The position numbers and the translations under genes were made by a program. Positions 23,516 to 56,003 of a stretch of DNA of 58,943 nt are shown here, in pieces (the first letter of the stretch is position 1; each line of letters starts with the position of its first letter). Location: NCBI GenBank assembly GCA_964612275.1, contig CAZTES010000002.1, forward strand, positions 1 to 58,943, given 5' to 3'. The DNA comes from an uncultured Rikenellaceae bacterium. Its GTDB lineage: Bacteria > Bacteroidota > Bacteroidia > Bacteroidales > VadinHA17. The notes below the pieces were generated by a model, which saw only the letters and a program-made list of their open reading frames with translations, was not told where the DNA came from and did no database searches.

Positions 23516-26500
23516 CTAATGATTATATAAAATCCTATTTATCAAACAGTTATTTATTGTTTCCACCTTTATCAAATAGACTCCGGGAGAGACTCTGTTT
23601 CCATTTGAAGTAGTTGCATCCCAATTCCATTCATGAACTCCATCGGCCAGGTTTCCTTCAAACAGAACAGAGATGGTTTTGCCTGTCATATCATGAATGG
23701 TAATCCTTATCTCATCCTGTTGTTCCAGGTGGATCTGTATTGTCGTAGAAATATTGAACGGATTAGGATAAATCTGCAGACCAATTTCATTCATTCCTGA
23801 ACGTTCATGTTCCTGAATAGAGAGGGGCGACCAGGATTCGTTGATTGCTCCGGGTGTCCCATGGGTATTTGAATCATACCAGTTTTCAGGCAGGGAATTA
23901 TCCAGGGCAGGATTGATCAGTTCCAGAGTAGGACCTGTTCCATTCGGTTCCGGAGGCCAGGGGGAACTGACTCCGTAGCAGACGGAATCGACCAGGTGAA
24001 GGCTATAGTCATACAGCCTTATGCAATCGCCGTAACTGCTCAGCCCAAAATCGAAATCACCCAAATGATTTGCCACGGATGGGTTCAGCGTGGAAAAAGC
24101 GGTATCATCTCTACAGACCACCAGGTAATCATCTGCCCCGATATGTGCATTCGAAGGAAAGATGAACTGGTGTTCGTCATCCGAATCTTTCACGATCCAA
24201 CCGGTGAGGTCTCTTGCCGTATCACCTCTGTTATAAATCTCGATCCAGTCACCGGTATCAAAATAACCGGGTGAATTATAATTGATCTCATTGATGACGA
24301 TGTATTGCAGTCCACTGCCATCCGGTTCAAAATTTGCCGTGATCTGCTGATCGGTTGAAACATCCAGAATGAGTGGATTTTCGGCGGATTGATAAGATCC
24401 TGTCCAGCCGGTGAAACGGTATCCGGGTTCAGGAACAGGGATTAATGTAACGGGGACATGATCAAAGTATATACCCCTCCATGAGTAACGTTCAGGAAGA
24501 ATGGTATTCAGCTTAATCTTACCTGAACAGGCTGGATTAACACCAAGATCCAGGGCAAATGTTCCATTTAAATTGAATTGATTCCGTATAAAATTCCGGA
24601 GATAATTGACCCTGTTCCGTCCAAAATTGATCATGACCTGGATTTCGTTCTCCCAGTTGCTGTAATCCCCGCCCCATCGGTCCAGGTGATCGTGCATTTC
24701 TGTTTCAATATTCTTTTTCAGTTTCAGGATATGATTCTGCACATTGTCCGGAAGGAAGGTTGTATTGAGGTGATCAGCAAAGCAGTTAATAAAATCTATT
24801 TTGAACCGGCTATTTTCCATTAATTTTCTTAGCAGGAAAGTGGACCAGGGAGGGTTTGGCCATTCCGGTCCGTTGGTTGCAAGGGCATAGGCAAGGGTAT
24901 TGAATGTATATTTAAATGGATTCCAGATACCAAATCCAAAATCTGTATCGAACATGATCCAGCGCCAGCGTCCCGTTTCTGAATGTGGACGCCAGAATTT
25001 GATATTGTTCCCGGGCCAGTCGCGGTTATCAAAATAGATCTGGCTGATCTGATACTTGATGAAATTTTCAGTTTCCATCATCGATTCTACAACGTTCAGG
25101 TTTTGATCCAGCTGCATATTGTTGTTATCGATAAAATTAAGCATGGAAAAATAATGATCAGCGCTTCCGTGTATTTCCCAACCGTTCCCCTCCAGCATAT
25201 CTATACTGTCCGGATGGACACCATGATTTGAAGCGATAAAGTGTTCATTCACTTTTTCACGGATATTCAGGATCCCCCAGTATTCACCGTTCAAGTATAT
25301 TTCGGCCGGCCTATAAGCCTGCAGGTCAATATCCATTCTGTTCACCAAACTGGTCATCATCCCATCCCTCATCATGGAATAGTTCCAGTCATTTCCTGAA
25401 TTTCTAAGAACGATCGCTTCGAACTGATCGATATCTTTTTCATCGAAGATCCTGTAATCGATGTTTCCATAGCCGTATTTGCTCCTGGCAAACAGGGATA
25501 GGGATTTCTGCGGTAAGCCACGACTCCACCCCCCGAATATCTTCATCCCTGCGTCAATTGAGAAGGCTTTATCCCCATCCTGTTCGAACAGCTCGATGTG
25601 GACCGGCCTTTCCCAATCCTGCCAGAAGTTAGCACCAAAATGGGGGAAATCCTGGGAAGCATTGGGTCCCATTACATAGATCCCGTCGTAGTAGTCCCAG
25701 AGGTTTTCAGGGGAGGTGGTCAGGGAAATTACGGGCAATGAGTTCTGGATATTAACCAGGTAGGTGTGGGATACCACCTGTCCCGGAATTTTTCCTTGTT
25801 CCAGGATCCTTGCCCTGATGACAGTTGTTGAGTGTATTGATATTCCATCGGTATATTTCTCCGAAAAGATGGTTGGTTCGCTCCCATCGGTGGTAAAATA
25901 TATGGTATCGTCGGTTTCCTGCCCGGTCAGGTAGAGAATAAATGATGTGGTAAAGAGCCCTCCGGGGGAAGAAAAATAAGGTTCCCCGGCAATTGAAGCG
26001 TACGTTTTTGTCAGGTTGGGTTCTCCAGGAGTAGCATCCTTAAAATAGAACAGGTTTCCAGATCCGTCGGGGTATCTCCCAATGGACAGGTCCGTATACA
26101 TCCGTTCAAAGGCAATGCTGTCAACGATTATCTCCGATGGGTCATACAGAAAAACGGTCTCTCCTTCAGCATCCAGTTTAAAATTCGTATGCAATAATGG
26201 GGAATTTATCTTCAGGATCGGAGGTACCGGGTGATCAGCTCCGGGATTGATGTTTGATCCGACACTCAGGAATGGGATGGCTGTCAGATCTGACGAGCCG
26301 GTGCTGTGGTTATGCACCTGGATGGCAAGCACGTTTTCCCCCTCCCTGATCAGGTTGTGCAGGGAATCGATGCGGAATGATTCCGGCGGTAATCCACGGT
26401 AAATCAGTGCTTCGTGGTTATAATTATTCGCTCCCTGATCGAATGCAGGAGGGATTCCCGGAATGCCTATGTTCCCCCGCGCGATTTCCTCTCCATTCAG

Positions 26501-27091
26501 ATACGCTACAAAACTGTCATCATAATCCATATGGAGAATGGCATCTTTCAGCTGGCTTGTATCATCGACCAGAAATTTTTTTCGGATATAGACAGACATG
26601 GTTATGTCTATCAGTGTTGAGTCATCATTATCTCCGTACCCGAATCCACTTTTTCCTGAATCCCAGTCCTGGTCATTGAAAGCAAGAGTATTCCAATCGG
26701 TTGAGGGTTCCTGGGTTGGAACAAGGTATTTCCATTCATCACCCCTGTTAATGATGGTTTGCCAGTACAGCGGAGGTTCAGTTCTGTTTTTCCCGGAAGC
26801 AAAGACTACAAGAAAATCATCGGGATCCAATATCACTTCCGGGAGTCTCCATTTCGGGAAGGTTGAATCGATATCCGACAGGCCATAATTTGTCAGCTGT
26901 ACCGGATCTGTCCCGCTATTGTACAGTTCAATCCAGTCTGTAAAATCCCCATCCTCATCCAAAATCGTTACCGAATTGGCAGGCATTACTTCATTGATCA
27001 CAATCCCCTGGGCGGATGAACCGGTGGTAAAGGTATACCATATGATCAGAGTCATGATCCAACAAACGCTTTTCCCCTGCTGCAATGCCAT
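23516..27091 (-). CDS. Secreted multidomain CotH-kinase-fold protein with two lamin-tail domains, CHB_HEX_C-like domain and T9SS C-terminal sorting domain
   Basis: 1191 aa with a signal peptide. LTD-like segments are IVINEVMPANS...DWIELYNSG and YIVINEINYNS...DWIEIYNRG. FSSPGGLF...IYFTTDGSEPT resembles a chitobiase C-terminal-like domain. The central region is CotH-like. The tail LQIYPNPFNISTTIQIHL...GVYLIKVE fits a T9SS CTD. Confidence 0.7.
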   Translation of the reverse strand: MALQQGKSVCWIMTLIIWYTFTTGSSAQGIVINEVMPANSVTILDEDGDFTDWIELYNSGTDPVQLTNYGLSDIDSTFPKWRLPEVILDPDDFLVVFASGKNRTEPPLYWQTIINRGDEWKYLVPTQEPSTDWNTLAFNDQDWDSGKSGFGYGDNDDSTLIDITMSVYIRKKFLVDDTSQLKDAILHMDYDDSFVAYLNGEEIARGNIGIPGIPPAFDQGANNYNHEALIYRGLPPESFRIDSLHNLIREGENVLAIQVHNHSTGSSDLTAIPFLSVGSNINPGADHPVPPILKINSPLLHTNFKLDAEGETVFLYDPSEIIVDSIAFERMYTDLSIGRYPDGSGNLFYFKDATPGEPNLTKTYASIAGEPYFSSPGGLFTTSFILYLTGQETDDTIYFTTDGSEPTIFSEKYTDGISIHSTTVIRARILEQGKIPGQVVSHTYLVNIQNSLPVISLTTSPENLWDYYDGIYVMGPNASQDFPHFGANFWQDWERPVHIELFEQDGDKAFSIDAGMKIFGGWSRGLPQKSLSLFARSKYGYGNIDYRIFDEKDIDQFEAIVLRNSGNDWNYSMMRDGMMTSLVNRMDIDLQAYRPAEIYLNGEYWGILNIREKVNEHFIASNHGVHPDSIDMLEGNGWEIHGSADHYFSMLNFIDNNNMQLDQNLNVVESMMETENFIKYQISQIYFDNRDWPGNNIKFWRPHSETGRWRWIMFDTDFGFGIWNPFKYTFNTLAYALATNGPEWPNPPWSTFLLRKLMENSRFKIDFINCFADHLNTTFLPDNVQNHILKLKKNIETEMHDHLDRWGGDYSNWENEIQVMINFGRNRVNYLRNFIRNQFNLNGTFALDLGVNPACSGKIKLNTILPERYSWRGIYFDHVPVTLIPVPEPGYRFTGWTGSYQSAENPLILDVSTDQQITANFEPDGSGLQYIVINEINYNSPGYFDTGDWIEIYNRGDTARDLTGWIVKDSDDEHQFIFPSNAHIGADDYLVVCRDDTAFSTLNPSVANHLGDFDFGLSSYGDCIRLYDYSLHLVDSVCYGVSSPWPPEPNGTGPTLELINPALDNSLPENWYDSNTHGTPGAINESWSPLSIQEHERSGMNEIGLQIYPNPFNISTTIQIHLEQQDEIRITIHDMTGKTISVLFEGNLADGVHEWNWDATTSNGNRVSPGVYLIKVETINNCLINRILYNH

Positions 27092-27779: not shown

Positions 27780-27935
27780 GATGTGTTGTAGTTTGGTGCT
27801 ATATAAATTTGGTTTCTTACAGAATCAAAAATAGAATTTTATTTCATCTATCTCAAAATATTTTGAACACTGGTTCCGCACCTGCGGAGCGGGGTTTTGT
27901 GTAGTCATTTTTGCGGACCTGTTCAACCGCCCCCA

Positions 27936-28640
27936 ATCTCTTAGGCTCTAAGTCTCCTCCTCTCTTCGTCTCAATGCCTGGTGCTTTTATTCGCCTCCCA
28001 CATGCGTTCACACATACCTGGCTCATGAGACCGCGAATAAATTCGCTAAGTTCGGTCCAGGGAAGGCTTTCCCGAAAAATTACCAGGCAGTTGGGCCGTT
28101 GTATCGGCGTAACCCTGGGCTAAAGACATGTCGCCCCGCTGGGGCTAATTCATTTATCCTAACAAAATACTCCCTTGTCCTCCCTTCTAATTCCCTGCAA
28201 CTTTTAACCTCTGTATGCCGACCAGGCAGGTGTATCTCGTAACTCCTATCTCACTAATCATTTCTTTTCCCAGGACCCAGGACCGAGGACCCAGCAACTA
28301 TTTCTACTCACAACTCACCCTTGTCCGCCGTAGTTTTCTTGACCTCTGTAGTTCTAACGAAAGAGGTAACGAAGGCGGATCTCACTACTCATCTCTTTTC
28401 CCAGTCCCCCCGCCCGAACGACTGTGTCCTTCAGTTGGGCAGGAAGTACCTAATTTGCTGCCTACTGCGTATCCCGAAAAACCATCCCATTGGGAATAGT
28501 TTTTCAAGGAGGACTTAATCAAACCATCTCTCCGTCTCTAGGTCTCTTCGTCTCAAAGTCTCCCCTTCTCATAGTCACAAACTCTCCCCTCTCACAGTCT
28601 CAAAGTCACAACGTCTTCCAATCACCTTCAACCATCATCC
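27936..28640. repeat. Mosaic of pyrimidine-rich word repeats and hairpin modules in an 862-bp non-coding gap
   Basis: tctcttcgtctc occurs at 27961-27972 and 28543-28554. A 26-bp direct repeat atctcacta[a/c]tcat[t/c]tcttttcccag lies at 28248-28273 and 28379-28404. cccaggacccaggaccgaggaccc starts at about 28269. The CT-rich tract 28524-28619 ends in catcatccttcatc. Confidence 0.75.
28324..28379. repeat. CCGCCGTAG...GGCGGATC hairpin module, copy 2 (inner stem covaries with copy at 6515-6569)
   Basis: tccgcc (28324-28329) pairs with ggcgga (28374-28379). The inner stem is acctct (28342-28347) / agaggt (28362-28367). Both copies share the flanks ccgccgtagt.ttctt and acg.aggcggatc. Confidence 0.7.
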
Positions 28641-28641
28641 T

Positions 28642-31129: not shown

Positions 31130-32047
31130 TCAAAATCTCATCACCCCCAGCTCCCTCAGCGCCAGGTAGGCTGCACCCAGCACTCCTGCTGAATCGCCCA
31201 TCCGGGCTTTCAAAACAGGGATCTCTCCTCTGGGCGGGCCAAAAAAGGAGCGGGTCATAATCAGCGGGACTTTCTCATACCAGATGGGAATATTCGATAC
31301 TCCTCCCCCGAGAATAATCGCTTCCAGGTCGAAAGCATTGACCACGTTGGCAAACACCTGTGCCATGATCTCACAACTCTCCTTGAACAGGTCGACTGCC
31401 AGGGTATCTCCTTTCAGATATAATTCCCAGATCTGCTGAAGGGACTTTTTTTCTCCGCTCACTTCATGATATCTTCTACACTGGCTTGGTCCGGAAAGAT
31501 AGGCTTCAGCACAACCTGACCTTCCACACTCGCACTTCCTTCCCCGGTAATCGATGGTAGTATGCCCTATTTCACCCGCCGCTCCATGTTTACCACGATA
31601 TAGTTTCTGATCCAGGATCAGTCCATATCCCATACCCGTCCCAACAATCACTGCCAGGACATGGGAATAGATTTCCTCATAATTCCCAAAATATTCAGCC
31701 AGGGCAAGGCAATTGGCATCATTTTCCACCACAAGGGGCAGGTTAAATTGTTCCCTAACCCGACGGATAAATCCCGGTGACTCATAAACCGGGGTATGGG
31801 GTGATCCGTGCAACACATCCTCCCCCGGCTCGTGGGTACCCGGTGTACCCATACCAATCGCTTCAACCGGATAATTTTTTGAAACCGCACCAAAAACGAC
31901 TTGAATATTCCGGATCACCTGATCCAATCCTTTTTGGGGCTGAGATAAAACACGATGCCGGGACAGGACCCCGCAGGACGAATCCATCAGGCATGCTTCC
32001 ACTTTCGTACCCCCCAGATCAATGCCAACAACATACTTTTCCACCAT
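31130..32047 (-). CDS. ROK-family sugar kinase
   Basis: 305 aa. N-terminal ATP-binding GIDLGGTKVE and the ROK zinc motif CECGRSGCAEAY. Confidence 0.85.
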   Translation of the reverse strand: MVEKYVVGIDLGGTKVEACLMDSSCGVLSRHRVLSQPQKGLDQVIRNIQVVFGAVSKNYPVEAIGMGTPGTHEPGEDVLHGSPHTPVYESPGFIRRVREQFNLPLVVENDANCLALAEYFGNYEEIYSHVLAVIVGTGMGYGLILDQKLYRGKHGAAGEIGHTTIDYRGRKCECGRSGCAEAYLSGPSQCRRYHEVSGEKKSLQQIWELYLKGDTLAVDLFKESCEIMAQVFANVVNAFDLEAIILGGGVSNIPIWYEKVPLIMTRSFFGPPRGEIPVLKARMGDSAGVLGAAYLALRELGVMRF

Positions 32048-39268: not shown

Positions 39269-39302
39269 CTTATTTTTTCGTTGTTCTACCAGGATTTCAT
39301 CA

Positions 39303-39526
39303 GGTCACACCTACGGAGCTCATGTTGTATAGTAATCCATATGCTAAAGACAGTTCGCTCCGCTGGAGCTAAAAAATTAATCCGGTTAGATTTACAGCTA
39401 TTCAATGCTTAATCTCAATTTGAAAATTCAGATTGCTCACTTATGCTTTTTTTTGCCCCGTCAGGGGCATTCTGTTTTTAGGCACCAAGATTGAAATATG
39501 ATCAGAGCTCCGTAGGAGCGGCCTGT
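39303..39526. repeat. MITE-like unit, left copy (5' terminus degenerate)
   Basis: Shares long blocks with 40023-40248: tcgctccgctggagct, aatccggttagatttacag, aatttgaaaattcagattgctcacttatgcttttttt, gccccgtcaggggcattctgt and agctcc.taggagcggcctgt. Internal triloop hairpins are gctcc gct ggagc (39357-39369) and gcccc gtca ggggc (39455-39468). Confidence 0.85.
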
Positions 39527-39531
39527 TTTTT

Positions 39532-39987
39532 TCACAAATCGAACAGATACCTCTCATCGTAATCCACATTAAATCTTTTCAATAATTTTAAATATTCTTC
39601 CTTGAATGAAGATCTAATATGATGTTTTTCCTGCTCTTGTATATATTTTATTACACTCGATTTTTGTGATTGGGAATAAGAAAAAACCCCGTATCCTTCC
39701 TGCCAGTTGAATTGGCCTTTAACCCATTTTTGTTTATTAATGAAACCCGATGAGTTGGCTTTTATATCTCTTACAAGATCGGGGAGTGGCATACTTGGTT
39801 TATAGTCAACTAATATGTGTATATGATCTGGCATGCAATTTATGGCCAACAATTTCTGTTTTCTTTTAGATATAATACCCGTGATATATTTATGCAGATC
39901 CTCTTTATGCATCTTTGAAATCAAATATTCCCTCCTAAGTACAGAAAAAACAATATGAAGATAAATTTTTGAATAGGTGTTAGCCAT
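39532..39987 (-). CDS. REP-associated tyrosine transposase-like protein (IS200-like Y1 HUH transposase, PF01797-type)
   Basis: ATG 39987 gives MANTYSKIYLHIVF. HUH motif in PDHIHILV; catalytic-Tyr region WQEGYGVFSY. About 150 aa and visibly AT-richer than the neighbours (by eye). Confidence 0.8.
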   Translation of the reverse strand: MANTYSKIYLHIVFSVLRREYLISKMHKEDLHKYITGIISKRKQKLLAINCMPDHIHILVDYKPSMPLPDLVRDIKANSSGFINKQKWVKGQFNWQEGYGVFSYSQSQKSSVIKYIQEQEKHHIRSSFKEEYLKLLKRFNVDYDERYLFDL

Positions 39988-40022
39988 GATTAGCACTTAA
40001 TTATTATGTTTAAATTCTTTTC

Positions 40023-40248
40023 ACAGGCCGCTCCTACGGAGCTTATTTTCTTTTCCAACTACTTTTCTAAAGACTGGTCGCTCCGCTGGAGCTGAAAACC
40101 CAATCCGGTTAGATTTACAGATGTTCAATGCTTTATCTTAATTTGAAAATTCAGATTGCTCACTTATGCTTTTTTTGCCCCGTCAGGGGCATTCTGTCTT
40201 TAGATACATGATCCATCCTAAAGATGGAGCTCCATAGGAGCGGCCTGT
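40023..40248. repeat. MITE-like unit, right copy with intact 20-nt terminal inverted repeats
   Basis: The 5' end is acaggccgctcctacggagc (40023-40042). The 3' end is gctccataggagcggcctgt (40229-40248), its reverse complement with 1 mismatch. Each terminus contains a gctcc-NNN-ggagc hairpin. Confidence 0.85.
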
Positions 40249-40258
40249 TACTCTAAAT

Positions 40259-55326: not shown

Positions 55327-55335
55327 ATATATTAA

Positions 55336-55416
55336 CCACAAAGAACACAAAGATTTTACACAAAGATCCTAAAGTCTTTCTTTGTGCACTTCGTGCCTTC
55401 TTTGAGCGCTTTGTGG
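55336..55416. repeat. 81-nt imperfect nested hairpin built from cacaaaga / tctttgtg words
   Basis: Outer stem ccacaaag (55336-55343) / ctttgtgg (55409-55416). Inner stem tacacaaaga (55357-55366) / tctttgtgca (55379-55388). Starts 10 nt after the GFO stop. Confidence 0.7.
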
Positions 55417-55514
55417 TAAAAAAACTTCGTAATGACTGAAAATGAACTTTAAAAAGCCTAATAGAACCGCTATAGTCCTCCCTTGAGGGAGGTGTAGGAG
55501 GGTGATTGTCTGTT

Positions 55515-55889
55515 ATGAAAAATGTGGATTACAATAAAAACCTTAAAGAAAAAGCCAGGGTGTTACGAACAAACTCAACTCGTGCAGAAATTCGTTTATG
55601 GTGTGAACTTCTGAGGGCAAAACAAATGTTGGATTACAGATTTTTAAGACAAAGACCTATTGACCTGTATATAGTTGATTTCTTTAATAAAGATCTCAAA
55701 CTCATTGTTGAAGTTGATGGAAGTTCCCATGATTCAAGATCTATTCAGGATGTTGAAAGAGATAGAAAATTTGATAAAAGGGGATATTCCATCCTCCGAT
55801 TTACAAATGAGGAGATATTGTTAGATTTGGATAACGTGAAAGAAAAAATTATGGACAGAATCTTAGCGTTAGAGCAATCACCCCTGTAG
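55515..55889 (+). CDS. DUF559 endonuclease-domain protein (Vsr/restriction-endonuclease-like fold)
   Basis: ATG 55515 (the track start 55506 is TTG). LRTNSTRAEIRLWCELLRAKQM.DYRFLRQRPI..YIVDFF......IVEVDGSSH.....D..RD......GY.ILRFTNEEI is the standard DUF559 pattern. AT-rich compared with its neighbours (by eye). Confidence 0.8.
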   Translation: MKNVDYNKNLKEKARVLRTNSTRAEIRLWCELLRAKQMLDYRFLRQRPIDLYIVDFFNKDLKLIVEVDGSSHDSRSIQDVERDRKFDKRGYSILRFTNEEILLDLDNVKEKIMDRILALEQSPL

Positions 55890-55985
55890 TCCCCTCAAGG
55901 GGACACTATGCGTGAAAACAAAGACGGGCTGATCCCCTATAGTCCCCTCAAGGGGACACTATGCGTAAAATTAGAGACAGGCTGT
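55881..55985. repeat. Tandem direct repeat, 2 x ~52 bp, each containing the hairpin gtcccct ca aggggac
   Basis: Copy 1 (55881-55932) is cccctgtagtcccctcaaggggacactatgcgtgaaaacaaagacgggctga. Copy 2 (55933-55985) is tcccctatagtcccctcaaggggacactatgcgtaaaattagagacaggctgt. Copy 1 overlaps the DUF559 stop. A related ctatagtcctcccttgagggagg lies upstream at 55470-55492. Confidence 0.85.
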
Positions 55986-56003
55986 TATGTAAATATGTGA
56001 ACC

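Follow-up and report, generated by a model that had tools for sequence, protein, structure and literature searches.

A probable REPtron-type module around a Y1 transposase of subclass 1.2 in an uncultured Rikenellaceae bacterium

The locus and its described relatives

The biology of repetitive extragenic palindromes (REPs) and of REP-associated tyrosine transposases (RAYTs) has been worked out almost wholly in Proteobacteria and with class 2 enzymes. In these classical REPtrons (E. coli, Pseudomonas, and Stenotrophomonas), one Y1 HUH gene lies between inverted REPs or REP pairs, the REP is dispersed, extragenic, and arranged in clusters of alternating orientation (bacterial interspersed mosaic elements, BIMEs, or REP doublets forming hairpins, REPINs), and REP and protein co-vary. 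The same arrangement is described here around an enzyme of another class. The locus lies in a stretch of 58,943 nucleotides, referred to as the window, which is contig CAZTES010000002.1 (assembly GCA_964612275.1, positions 1 to 58,943) of an uncultured Rikenellaceae bacterium. It consists of a small transposase gene, called tnpA_Y1, placed between two hairpin-rich direct repeats of ~225 bp in the spacer between a TIM-barrel gene and an old yellow enzyme (OYE)-like gene. It is probable that the locus is a REPtron-type module around a Y1 (HUH) transposase of subclass 1.2, that a short REP is its cognate DNA, and that the gene cassette was gained at a resident REP cluster.

The enzyme group in question, subclass 1.2 of TnpA_Y1, was described as close to IS200 TnpA and as having no properties of an insertion sequence (IS) (Quentin, Siguier, Chandler, and Fichant 2018, PMC6006769). 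Its signature consists of DH[IV]H, WQ, and Y---Q--HH in proteins of median length 148 aa with a conserved C-terminal extension. Its copy number is low (1.7), intragenomic copies are just 36% identical, and its range was given as Cyanobacteria and Bacteroidetes. The subclass is generally without IS200-type terminal structures, and Table 1 of that work has the entry 'REP: no' for it (PMC6006769). The window protein resembles the subclass in its length of ~150 aa, its motifs, its C-terminal extension, its apparently low copy number (one copy in the 59-kb contig), its lack of IS-like character, and its nearness to IS200 TnpA. Two differences stand out. The window gene lies between inverted, conserved REPs, in contrast to the published 'REP: no', and the hosts of this REP come from about 8 phyla, whereas only the Cyanobacteria and Bacteroidetes were listed for the subclass.

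The locus differs from class 2 REPtrons in that its enzyme belongs to class 1, with a Y---Q motif and not Y---NP. Furthermore, its REP is much shorter, with a 5-bp stem, no 5' GT[AG]G foot, and a conserved flank on the 3' side, and it is nearly invariant across phyla, whereas the REPs of class 2 systems are lineage-specific. With the IS200/IS605 elements (IS200, IS608, and ISDra2) the locus shares the closest enzymes, small hairpins bordering the coding sequence, an expected single-strand 'peel and paste' chemistry, a gene found at differing sites in related genomes, and a gene GC content below that of the host. Unlike these elements, it is bounded by a perfect inverted repeat of a motif with many gene-less copies, it appears to be low in copy number and has no tnpB, and solo hairpin clusters occupy the orthologous site. 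Likewise, REPINs and BIMEs are non-coding and extragenic, and their inverted REP pairs fold into one long hairpin, but the window unit is a doublet of doublets, that is, four REPs and an 85-nt core within 225 bp. The RAYTs of group 5 (subclass 2.6) resemble the locus in their Bacteroidetes hosts and in the 'atypical secondary structures' flanking the gene, but they are proteins of 179 aa with NH[LIV]H, YIH[QN]NP, and an alphaC-beta4 insertion, and the window protein has none of these. Genes named 'RayT' were also seen at differing places among strains in a Chryseobacterium resistome study, in which repeats were not looked at (PMC11194056).

The transposase and the units that flank it

The 990-bp gap at 39269-40258 is bounded on one side by the start of the OYE-like gene (39268) and on the other by the stop of the xylose-isomerase-like TIM-barrel gene (40259), in agreement with an earlier note on this DNA that was made from the sequence alone. 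The single IS200-like open reading frame (ORF) that the note placed in this gap, with the HUH motif PDHIHILV, was confirmed as a match to Pfam Y1_Tnp (PF01797; E = 1.4e-26, 93.4 bits against a cut-off of 23). Its start was assigned to the ATG at 39987 because public assemblies record that product and because MANTY is a conserved N-terminus of the family. One copy of tnpA_Y1 is present in the 59-kb contig. The gene has a GC content of 0.32 compared with 0.47 for the remaining contig, and GC of the Y1 gene was lower than that of the surroundings in 22 of 23 loci. The exact 151-aa protein was found on five metagenome contigs, every time at the window's locus. The six metagenome contigs with an identical or >90% identical protein (L001-L005 and L010) all carry it at this locus and represent the window's own strain (99.9-100% identity), so they are uninformative on empty sites.

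The protein contains the HUH motif P53-D-H-I-H57, the pair W95-Q96, and Y115 within Y-I-x-x-Q-E-x-H-H (KYIQEQEKHH). Y115 is taken to be the catalytic Tyr because alignment puts it on the helix that bears the catalytic Tyr in ISDra2 TnpA and because all 28 homologues have it. The earlier note had sought this residue in QEGYGVFSY, which turned out to be the region of the W motif (W95-Q96). Across the 28 aligned homologues, P-D-H-x-H, W-Q, and Y-I-x-x-Q-E-x-H-H are invariant, as are F128, E131, Y132, and F149 in the C-terminal part. The Y1_Tnp score, the HUH motif, and the single Tyr on a C-terminal helix place the protein in the HUH/Y1 transposase superfamily. Within it, PDHIHI, NWQ, YIQEQEKHH, the length of 151 aa, and the conserved C-terminal residues agree with subclass 1.2 as its motifs were published. 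By these motif definitions (PMC6006769), and not by comparison with the paper's own sequences, the window protein is assigned to TnpA_Y1 subclass 1.2, the closest sister group of IS200 TnpA.

The note had called the enzyme RAYT-type, and in the classical sense this did not hold. Membership of the classical RAYTs (TnpA_REP, class 2) was rejected because the Y motif is YIQEQ and not Y---NP and because the protein falls below the cut-off of the RAYT model NF047646. The solved relatives in the PDB at E<=0.01 are only IS200/IS605 TnpAs (ISDra2, IS608, and archaeal ones); E. coli TnpA_REP (4ER8) was not matched at this threshold. The NCBIfam model transpos_IS200 scored 74.8 bits, above its cut-off of 55. 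The family is large: it comprises at least about 8000 clusters of 90% identity at E<=1e-5 and 145 clusters of 50% identity at E<=1e-30, and identity is typically 60-67% among sequences sourced from Bacteroidota, KSB1, Poribacteria, and Acidobacteria. Homologues are publicly annotated as IS200/IS605 transposases; JGI uses the label 'REP element-mobilizing transposase RayT', which is no more than a generic name from COG. Some cluster representatives, about 20 with lengths of 270-320 aa (P0255, P0257-P0259, P0262, P0263, and others), match the 151-aa query twice, as though two Y1 domains had been fused in tandem. Such fusions are noteworthy because the active form of IS200-type TnpA is a dimer.

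Two direct units of ~225 bp (39301-39526 and 40023-40248) bracket the gene at a spacing of 722-723 nt. They had been recognized in the earlier note, which began the left unit at 39303, and both identical blocks quoted there are present. The left and right units are ~82% identical over the first 158 nt and share blocks at 96-97%. The gene-proximal termini (39506-39526 and 40023-40043) do face each other, and they form a 21-nt inverted repeat around the gene that is 100% complementary. The terminal inverted repeats of the right unit (40023-40043 and 40228-40248), reported earlier as having one mismatch, do so over 21 nt (95% complementary), and those of the left unit are also 21 nt long (86%). 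The motif GCTCCNNNGGAGC occurs exactly five times in the window, each time at the tnpA_Y1 locus. With at most one mismatch it has 6 matches compared with 1.4 expected, a number reached in 0 of 100 shuffles, and the full 21-mer occurs 3 times compared with 0 expected.

The hairpin termini of the earlier description are indeed REP hairpins, but each unit contains four REP-like hairpins and not two. On the plus strand of the window the order is (-)(-)core(+)(+), in other words REPa, REPb, core, REPd, REPc; in the orientation of the gene it reads REPc(-), REPd(-), ~85-nt core, REPb(+), REPa(+). The REPd hairpin (GCCCCGTCAGGGGCATTCTGT) is a compensated GCCCC/GGGGC variant with a 4-nt loop and the tail CTGT(C/T)TTTAG. 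The features of the locus are listed below, with scores from a covariance model (CM), R1, that was built from 148 REPs.

39300..39320, minus: REPa of the left unit, decayed, with stem GGTGT instead of GGAGC and 3 mismatches; CM 9 bits; inverted repeat 86%
39350..39370, minus: REPb of the left unit (reverse complement AGCTCCAGCGGAGCGAACTGT); CM 27.8 bits
39371..39453, no strand: core of the left unit, from alignment
39454..39475, plus: REPd of the left unit (TGCCCCGTCAGGGGCATTCTGT), compensated REP variant
39506..39526, plus: REPc of the left unit; CM 40.4 bits; in gene orientation a REP(-) ~9 nt past the end of the coding match
39532..39987, minus: tnpA_Y1 gene, 151 aa, subclass 1.2 signature, Pfam Y1_Tnp
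40023..40043, minus: REPa of the right unit; CM 40.1 bits; forms the perfect inverted repeat with 39506-39526; read along the gene, a REP(+) 36 nt ahead of the ATG
40073..40093, minus: REPb of the right unit (reverse complement AGCTCCAGCGGAGCGACCAGT, tail CTTTAG); CM 25.7 bits, E = 3.6e-5
40094..40175, no strand: core of the right unit, near-identical to the left core and unlike the cores of orthologous solo units
40176..40197, plus: REPd of the right unit (TGCCCCGTCAGGGGCATTCTGT), compensated stem GCCCC/GGGGC, 4-nt loop, tail CTGTCTTTAG
40228..40248, plus: REPc of the right unit (AGCTCCATAGGAGCGGCCTGT), adjoining the TIM-barrel stop; CM 36.1 bits, E = 3e-8

When single-stranded, either unit folds along its whole length (z = -6.6 and -4.4), so both units combine terminal inverted repeats with self-folding, as miniature inverted-repeat transposable elements (MITEs) and REPINs do. 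The 225-bp unit is a real composite, REPIN/BIME-like element. To this extent the composite multi-hairpin unit of the earlier note stands: it is composite, it folds on itself, and relatives hold solo copies of it. That it is an active MITE in the window's genome is unproven, as no further copies were found in the contig or in a metagenome scan. An Rfam scan of the locus and four related loci gave no match, so the units correspond to no known RNA family; a chance match to STnc220 (22.7 bits against a cut-off of 60) was discarded. A sigma-70-like promoter in the core (TTGAAA-16-TATGCT) was likewise set aside, as such sites occur at chance level (5 found, 3.8 expected).

A dispersed palindrome and its gene

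The REP consensus is AGCTCC-NNN-GGAGCG(A/G)CCTGT, with a 5-bp GC-rich stem, a 3-nt loop, and a conserved 3' tail, and it continues past the 21-mer as TT(A/G)TAG. Written as a single-stranded oligonucleotide, with its complement as the other strand, the sequence is as follows.

REP oligonucleotide: AGCTCCGTAGGAGCGGCCTGTTTGTAGAA

A collection of species-representative genomes (596 Gb) was scanned with AGCTCCNNNGGAGCGRCCTRT, which has 16 fixed and 2 two-fold positions. The scan found at least 120 genome blocks, compared with ~70 chance matches expected over the whole collection; the window's own metagenome-assembled genome (MAG) is not among the matches listed. The hosts of the listed matches belong to about 8 phyla. 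They include Bacteroidota (Chryseobacterium, Flavobacterium, Epilithonimonas, Pontibacter, Saprospiraceae, and Bacteroidales), Blastocatellia and other Acidobacteriota, Desulfobacteraceae (Desulfobacterota), Kuenenia/Brocadiaceae (Planctomycetota), Ignavibacteria (Ignavibacteriota), Calditrichota, a KSB1 member, and a few others. Several MAGs have 2-6 separate REP blocks among these matches.

The 120 listed blocks contain 345 REP copies at up to 3 mismatches, and the copies are extragenic: just 9% are fully enclosed by an open frame of 150 codons or more, compared with a background of 81%. In these blocks, the distance between neighbouring REPs is 40-59 nt when they share an orientation, 20-50 nt when they stand tail to tail, and mostly 110-160 nt when they stand head to head. 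Tail-to-tail pairs recur at separate loci of one genome (for example L027/L074 and L068/L080). The four-REP build of the window units, tandem at ~50 nt and facing at 110-160 nt, is thus a general grammar of the family and not a peculiarity of the locus. The stem is under selection for pairing, because 96 of 102 double changes in it are still paired. The middle stem pair changed from T.A to C.G 53 times, compared with 21 one-sided changes, and C.G at this pair is the commonest compensated form in the family. The REP sequence was not found by text in the literature searched, a search whose reach did not extend to subscription papers and ISfinder/TnCentral notes, and the REP table in the supplement of PMC6006769 holds no similar REP. 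Some blocks consist of tandem arrays of 5-7 REPs with a period of ~49-50 nt (L060 1-267, L072 5175-5780, and L028 5740-6230), and such arrays could pass for CRISPR arrays in repeat finders.

The palindrome is associated with the gene. A homologue 55-67% identical to the window protein, always adjacent to a REP, was found in 18 of the 120 listed 8-kb blocks. As a chance baseline, one small gene per genome of several Mb would fall in well under 1% of random blocks. The arrangement is also directional. A REP(+), with AGCTCC...CCTGT on the coding strand, precedes the gene start by 1-85 nt in 17 loci, and a REP(-) follows the gene end by 6-51 nt in 17 loci, that of the window among them. Loci found through the protein point the same way, as L131, L133, and L151 share the REP(+)-gene-REP(-) layout; in L132 it is weak or absent. 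As a negative control, no REP was found near IS200-like TnpAs of viral contigs that are 27-33% identical (0 of 10 loci). A Y1 gene between inverted REPs, which characterizes a REPtron, is therefore present, and gene-less extragenic REPs are abundant for the family (102 of the 120 listed blocks have no Y1 gene), although the window contig has one weak relic outside the locus. The REPtron reading of the earlier note is in this way upheld in its two main points, the inverted palindromes around a Y1 gene and the dispersal of the palindrome without the gene, but with an enzyme that is not a classical RAYT.

History of the site and rival explanations

Comparison of the orthologous locus in four more distant relatives that share its gene neighbourhood, which the earlier note had proposed for related strains, found no Y1 gene and in its place a solo unit or remnant. 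In L146 (GCA_975960485.1) and L147, a solo four-REP unit, ~72% identical to either window unit, lies between the TIM-barrel and OYE genes; two stems of the L147 unit are broken. In L006 (GCA_964389685.1) an 85-bp spacer retains just REPc and the next 14 nt. By alignment, REPc of the right window unit is orthologous to the REP retained in L006, L146, and L147. An outgroup, the Bacteroidales MAG L150, has a decayed solo unit after the TIM-barrel gene and no Y1 gene. Between the window, L146, L147, and L006, identity of the flanking proteins is 79-85% and the pattern is star-like; for L150 the figure is 67%. Long GC-rich palindromes (cctgcctgccggcaggcagg and neighbours) lie at L146 4290-4365 between the solo unit and the OYE start and are absent from the window.

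The four-way alignment locates the difference within the units. The REPc-REPd spacer of L146 matches the right window unit, on the TIM-barrel side, and its REPb-REPa spacer matches the left unit, on the OYE side; the tail of the left REPb and the spacer next to it match the solo unit of L146. The remaining spacer of each window unit is unrelated to the L146 spacers, and the two window cores are near-identical to each other and unlike the core of L146 and L147. This alignment, together with BLAST of the empty sites, defines the following stretch.

39476..40072, no strand: minimum stretch absent from solo units

It holds the left REPd-REPc spacer, the left REPc, the gene, the right REPa, and the right REPa-REPb spacer; if both cores came in too, the maximum absent stretch would be ~39371-40175. 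Related genes occupy other sites. The homologue in L133 (85% identical in amino acids) follows a homologue of window ORF 31130-32047, and on either side of it stands a REPc-REPd module, repeated directly and without a difference over at least 97 nt; the homologues in L131 and L132 (79% and 71%) follow an unrelated ORF of 410-466 aa. L133 and L150 share a sister version of the unit with a ~230-nt core, 83% identical, at unrelated sites. At L133 300-690 this unit flanks the Y1 gene, at L150 4110-4470 it is a decaying solo copy, and its long core has no Rfam match. Judged by these alignments, a REP-bounded gene cassette most likely entered a resident REP cluster.

How would such a module work and move? 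By homology with IS608/ISDra2 TnpA and E. coli TnpA_REP, the enzyme would bind the folded REP on single-stranded DNA and would cut beside it through a 5'-phosphotyrosine bond to Y115, with a metal bound by the HUH motif, before the ends are rejoined. Cleavage and rejoining of this kind would spread, rearrange, or exchange REP-bounded segments. Where IS608/ISDra2 TnpA and TnpA_REP cut is guided by a tetranucleotide on the 5' side of the hairpin (PMC8266576). No conserved tetranucleotide was found 5' of the REP stem (GT[AG]G or CGTC foot). The conserved flank lies 3' of the hairpin as written (GRCCTGT, then TT[A/G]TAG) and is 5' on the complementary strand (CTAYAAACAGGYC-hairpin). As for the site itself, a solo REP cluster would first have lain between the TIM-barrel and OYE genes, and a low-GC cassette consisting of a cluster half, the gene, and a cluster half would then have been acquired into it. 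The unit-gene-unit arrangement would most likely have arisen by an exchange that ran through REPd at one end and through REPb at the other, stretches common to donor and target.

Several observations weigh against the gain of a REPtron cassette as set out here. The NCBIfam model REP_Tyr_transpos (NF047646) scored 34.5 bits, well below its cut-off of 80. Within the 59-kb contig, model R1 found five strong REPs, all at the tnpA_Y1 locus, and neither this contig nor a metagenome scan whose collection covers the window's organism poorly gave an extra copy of the unit. L152, a locus found through the protein, has a weak REP match only. A homologue of 49% identity on the Bernardetia sp. megaplasmid NZ_CP147018.1 (L153) is accompanied by a different palindrome, upstream only; no copy of it lies downstream of that gene, and no copy of the window-type REP was found in 40 kb of L153. 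Four copies of this palindrome (AGTTGC-AGA/AGC-GCAAC, tail ..TATTTGTAGAA) stand as (+)(+)(-)(-) ahead of the gene at L153 19790-19975. The Bernardetia palindrome has a 5-bp stem and a 3-nt loop, as does the window-type REP, and the pairing of a homologue with a different palindrome of like build suggests that enzyme and REP substrate co-vary, as is known for class 2 RAYTs (PMC8266576). The site history holds difficulties as well. The two window cores share one non-ancestral type, which a single crossover does not explain, and the single-crossover model was rejected; a double exchange or later gene conversion must be assumed. Moreover, recombination between the two direct units would also yield solo units.

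The last point leads to a reverse history, in which the unit-gene-unit arrangement of the REPtron is ancestral. The gene would then have disappeared together with one unit in each of L146, L147, and L006, whether because the direct units recombined with each other or because the enzyme excised the stretch between two REPs that point the same way. A gene flanked by 225-bp direct repeats is a textbook target of deletions that leave a solo copy, the L146 unit is a left-R/right-L chimera exactly as deletion predicts, L006 shows further decay, and units decay in L147 and L150. This history is a serious contender, if an unlikely one. It needs three or four independent losses on a star-like phylogeny whose outgroup is also gene-less, and the window units are closer to each other (82%, near-identical cores) than to the orthologous solo units (72%, different cores). 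The GC content of the gene, 15 points under that of the host, and the close homologues at other sites also argue against it. Another proposal, made in the earlier note, is that the 225-bp unit is an active multi-copy MITE in the window's genome, mobilized in trans by the enzyme. It draws on the 21-nt terminal inverted repeats, the hairpin folding, the existence of solo units, the long-core sister unit at two unrelated sites (L133 and L150, 83% identity), and the likeness of the window cores where orthologous cores differ, which is expected of a genome-specific unit family. We regard it as rather unlikely, as the 59-kb contig and 22 kb of L006 contain zero further copies. In the metagenome scan a 22-mer of the unit core was found only at the tnpA_Y1 locus and in L134. 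The L134 hit falls within an ORF, shows no likeness to the unit beyond the 22-mer, and was put down to chance; the scan is a weak test, as its collection lacks most samples with the organism and it missed two JGI contigs known to carry the locus. For the window's own genome, poorly covered as it is, the search for other unit copies that the note had called for thus came back empty.

An ordinary autonomous IS200/IS605 IS, recently inserted in the TIM-barrel/OYE spacer with the hairpins as its ends, would fit the transpos_IS200 match, the annotation of the homologues, the IS TnpAs that are the closest solved relatives, the absence of the Y1 gene from orthologous sites and its presence at other sites in close relatives, and its low GC. 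It is nevertheless highly unlikely. Perfectly matched, inverted copies of a palindrome make up the ends, this palindrome is also found far from any such gene, clustered and extragenic, and relatives have solo REP clusters at the same site. One gene copy is present in 59 kb, the subclass has the low copy number, the divergent intragenomic copies, and the lack of IS200-type ends described above (PMC6006769), and the viral IS200-like TnpAs have no REP beside them. Membership of IS200/IS605, whose elements have several near-identical copies per genome, distinct, non-inverted ends, and insertion 3' of a fixed tetra- or pentanucleotide, was rejected in view of the perfect inverted repeat, the single copy in the contig, and the pre-existing REP cluster. 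It is scarcely credible that the hairpins are terminators or mRNA-stabilizing elements of a sugar-metabolism array and the transposase an unrelated passenger. Terminator-like sites are predicted at REPd and REPc (4 compared with 0.8 expected), but all four are on the plus strand, antisense to every gene here, and none is predicted on the sense (minus) strand of the locus, on which the earlier note had suggested that the element may interrupt transcription. Furthermore, the 21-nt sequence, and not structure alone, is conserved across phyla and travels with the Y1 gene.

The rest of the window has little that resembles the REP. The one relic that model R1 reported outside the locus is marginal (28119-28148, E = 0.095), with a GCCCC/GGGGC stem and the tail ctaaagac. 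The related singleton of the earlier note, ccgcacctgcggagcgg, does exist, at 27876-27892 and not at 27886-27902; its stem is mismatched, it falls below the reporting limit of the model, and it is at best a decayed REP copy. Both REP-like copies lie in a gene-free gap of 862 bp (27780-28641), which also contains CT-rich tandem repeats of 8, 16, and 24 nt at 27937-27974 and 28519-28620. The suggestion that the element explains hairpin-rich intergenic regions across the window found no evidence, as strong REPs are confined to the locus and the other hairpins come from other families. One of these belongs to a second, different module of a small gene plus hairpins, in which ORF 55506-55889 (+) encodes a 127-aa DUF559 protein (Vsr-like endonuclease fold) and stands alone in a 677-bp gap (55327-56003). 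Its flanks carry GC hairpins with a TAG/GTAG 5' foot, one upstream at ~55472-55495 (ctatagTCCTCCCttgaGGGAGG) and two 53-nt tandem copies downstream at 55881-55984 (ctgtagTCCCCtcaaGGGGAC). The sole direct hint of a host of the FCB group (Bacteroidota-like) within the window is the C-terminal sorting domain of the type IX secretion system (T9SS) in a 1191-aa protein with CotH-kinase and lamin-tail domains (23516-27091, minus). A Bacteroidota host, as assumed in the earlier note, is plausible; among named relatives with shared synteny the nearest is a Bacteroidales MAG at 69%.

Meaning of the module

A REPtron-type module gained at a resident REP cluster would have consequences that reach beyond this locus. 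A sister group of IS200 TnpA that was described as neither IS nor REP-associated displays the full grammar of a REPtron. Its REP is a short one, conserved to an extreme degree, and the gene seems to be still on the move from site to site and from genome to genome. On this basis the case for a wider view is about evenly balanced. Subclass 1.2 may be the enzyme of a pan-phylum REP system with a 21-nt hairpin-plus-tail that is near-invariant from Bacteroidota to Acidobacteriota, Desulfobacterota, and Planctomycetota, in which REP clusters would serve as landing pads for the horizontal transfer of cassettes and which would represent a living intermediate between IS200 and domesticated REPtrons.

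The substrate of 21 nt is small enough for direct in vitro tests. Genes of this kind are now labelled 'IS200/IS605 family transposase' or 'RayT', with the basis unstated, which bears on their annotation. If confirmed, the system would account for an abundant class of palindromes between genes, and for arrays with a period of ~50 nt, in phyla that include Bacteroidota and Acidobacteriota, and it would offer a widespread setting for asking how an IS200-like element becomes a REP-spreading enzyme that is retained by its host.

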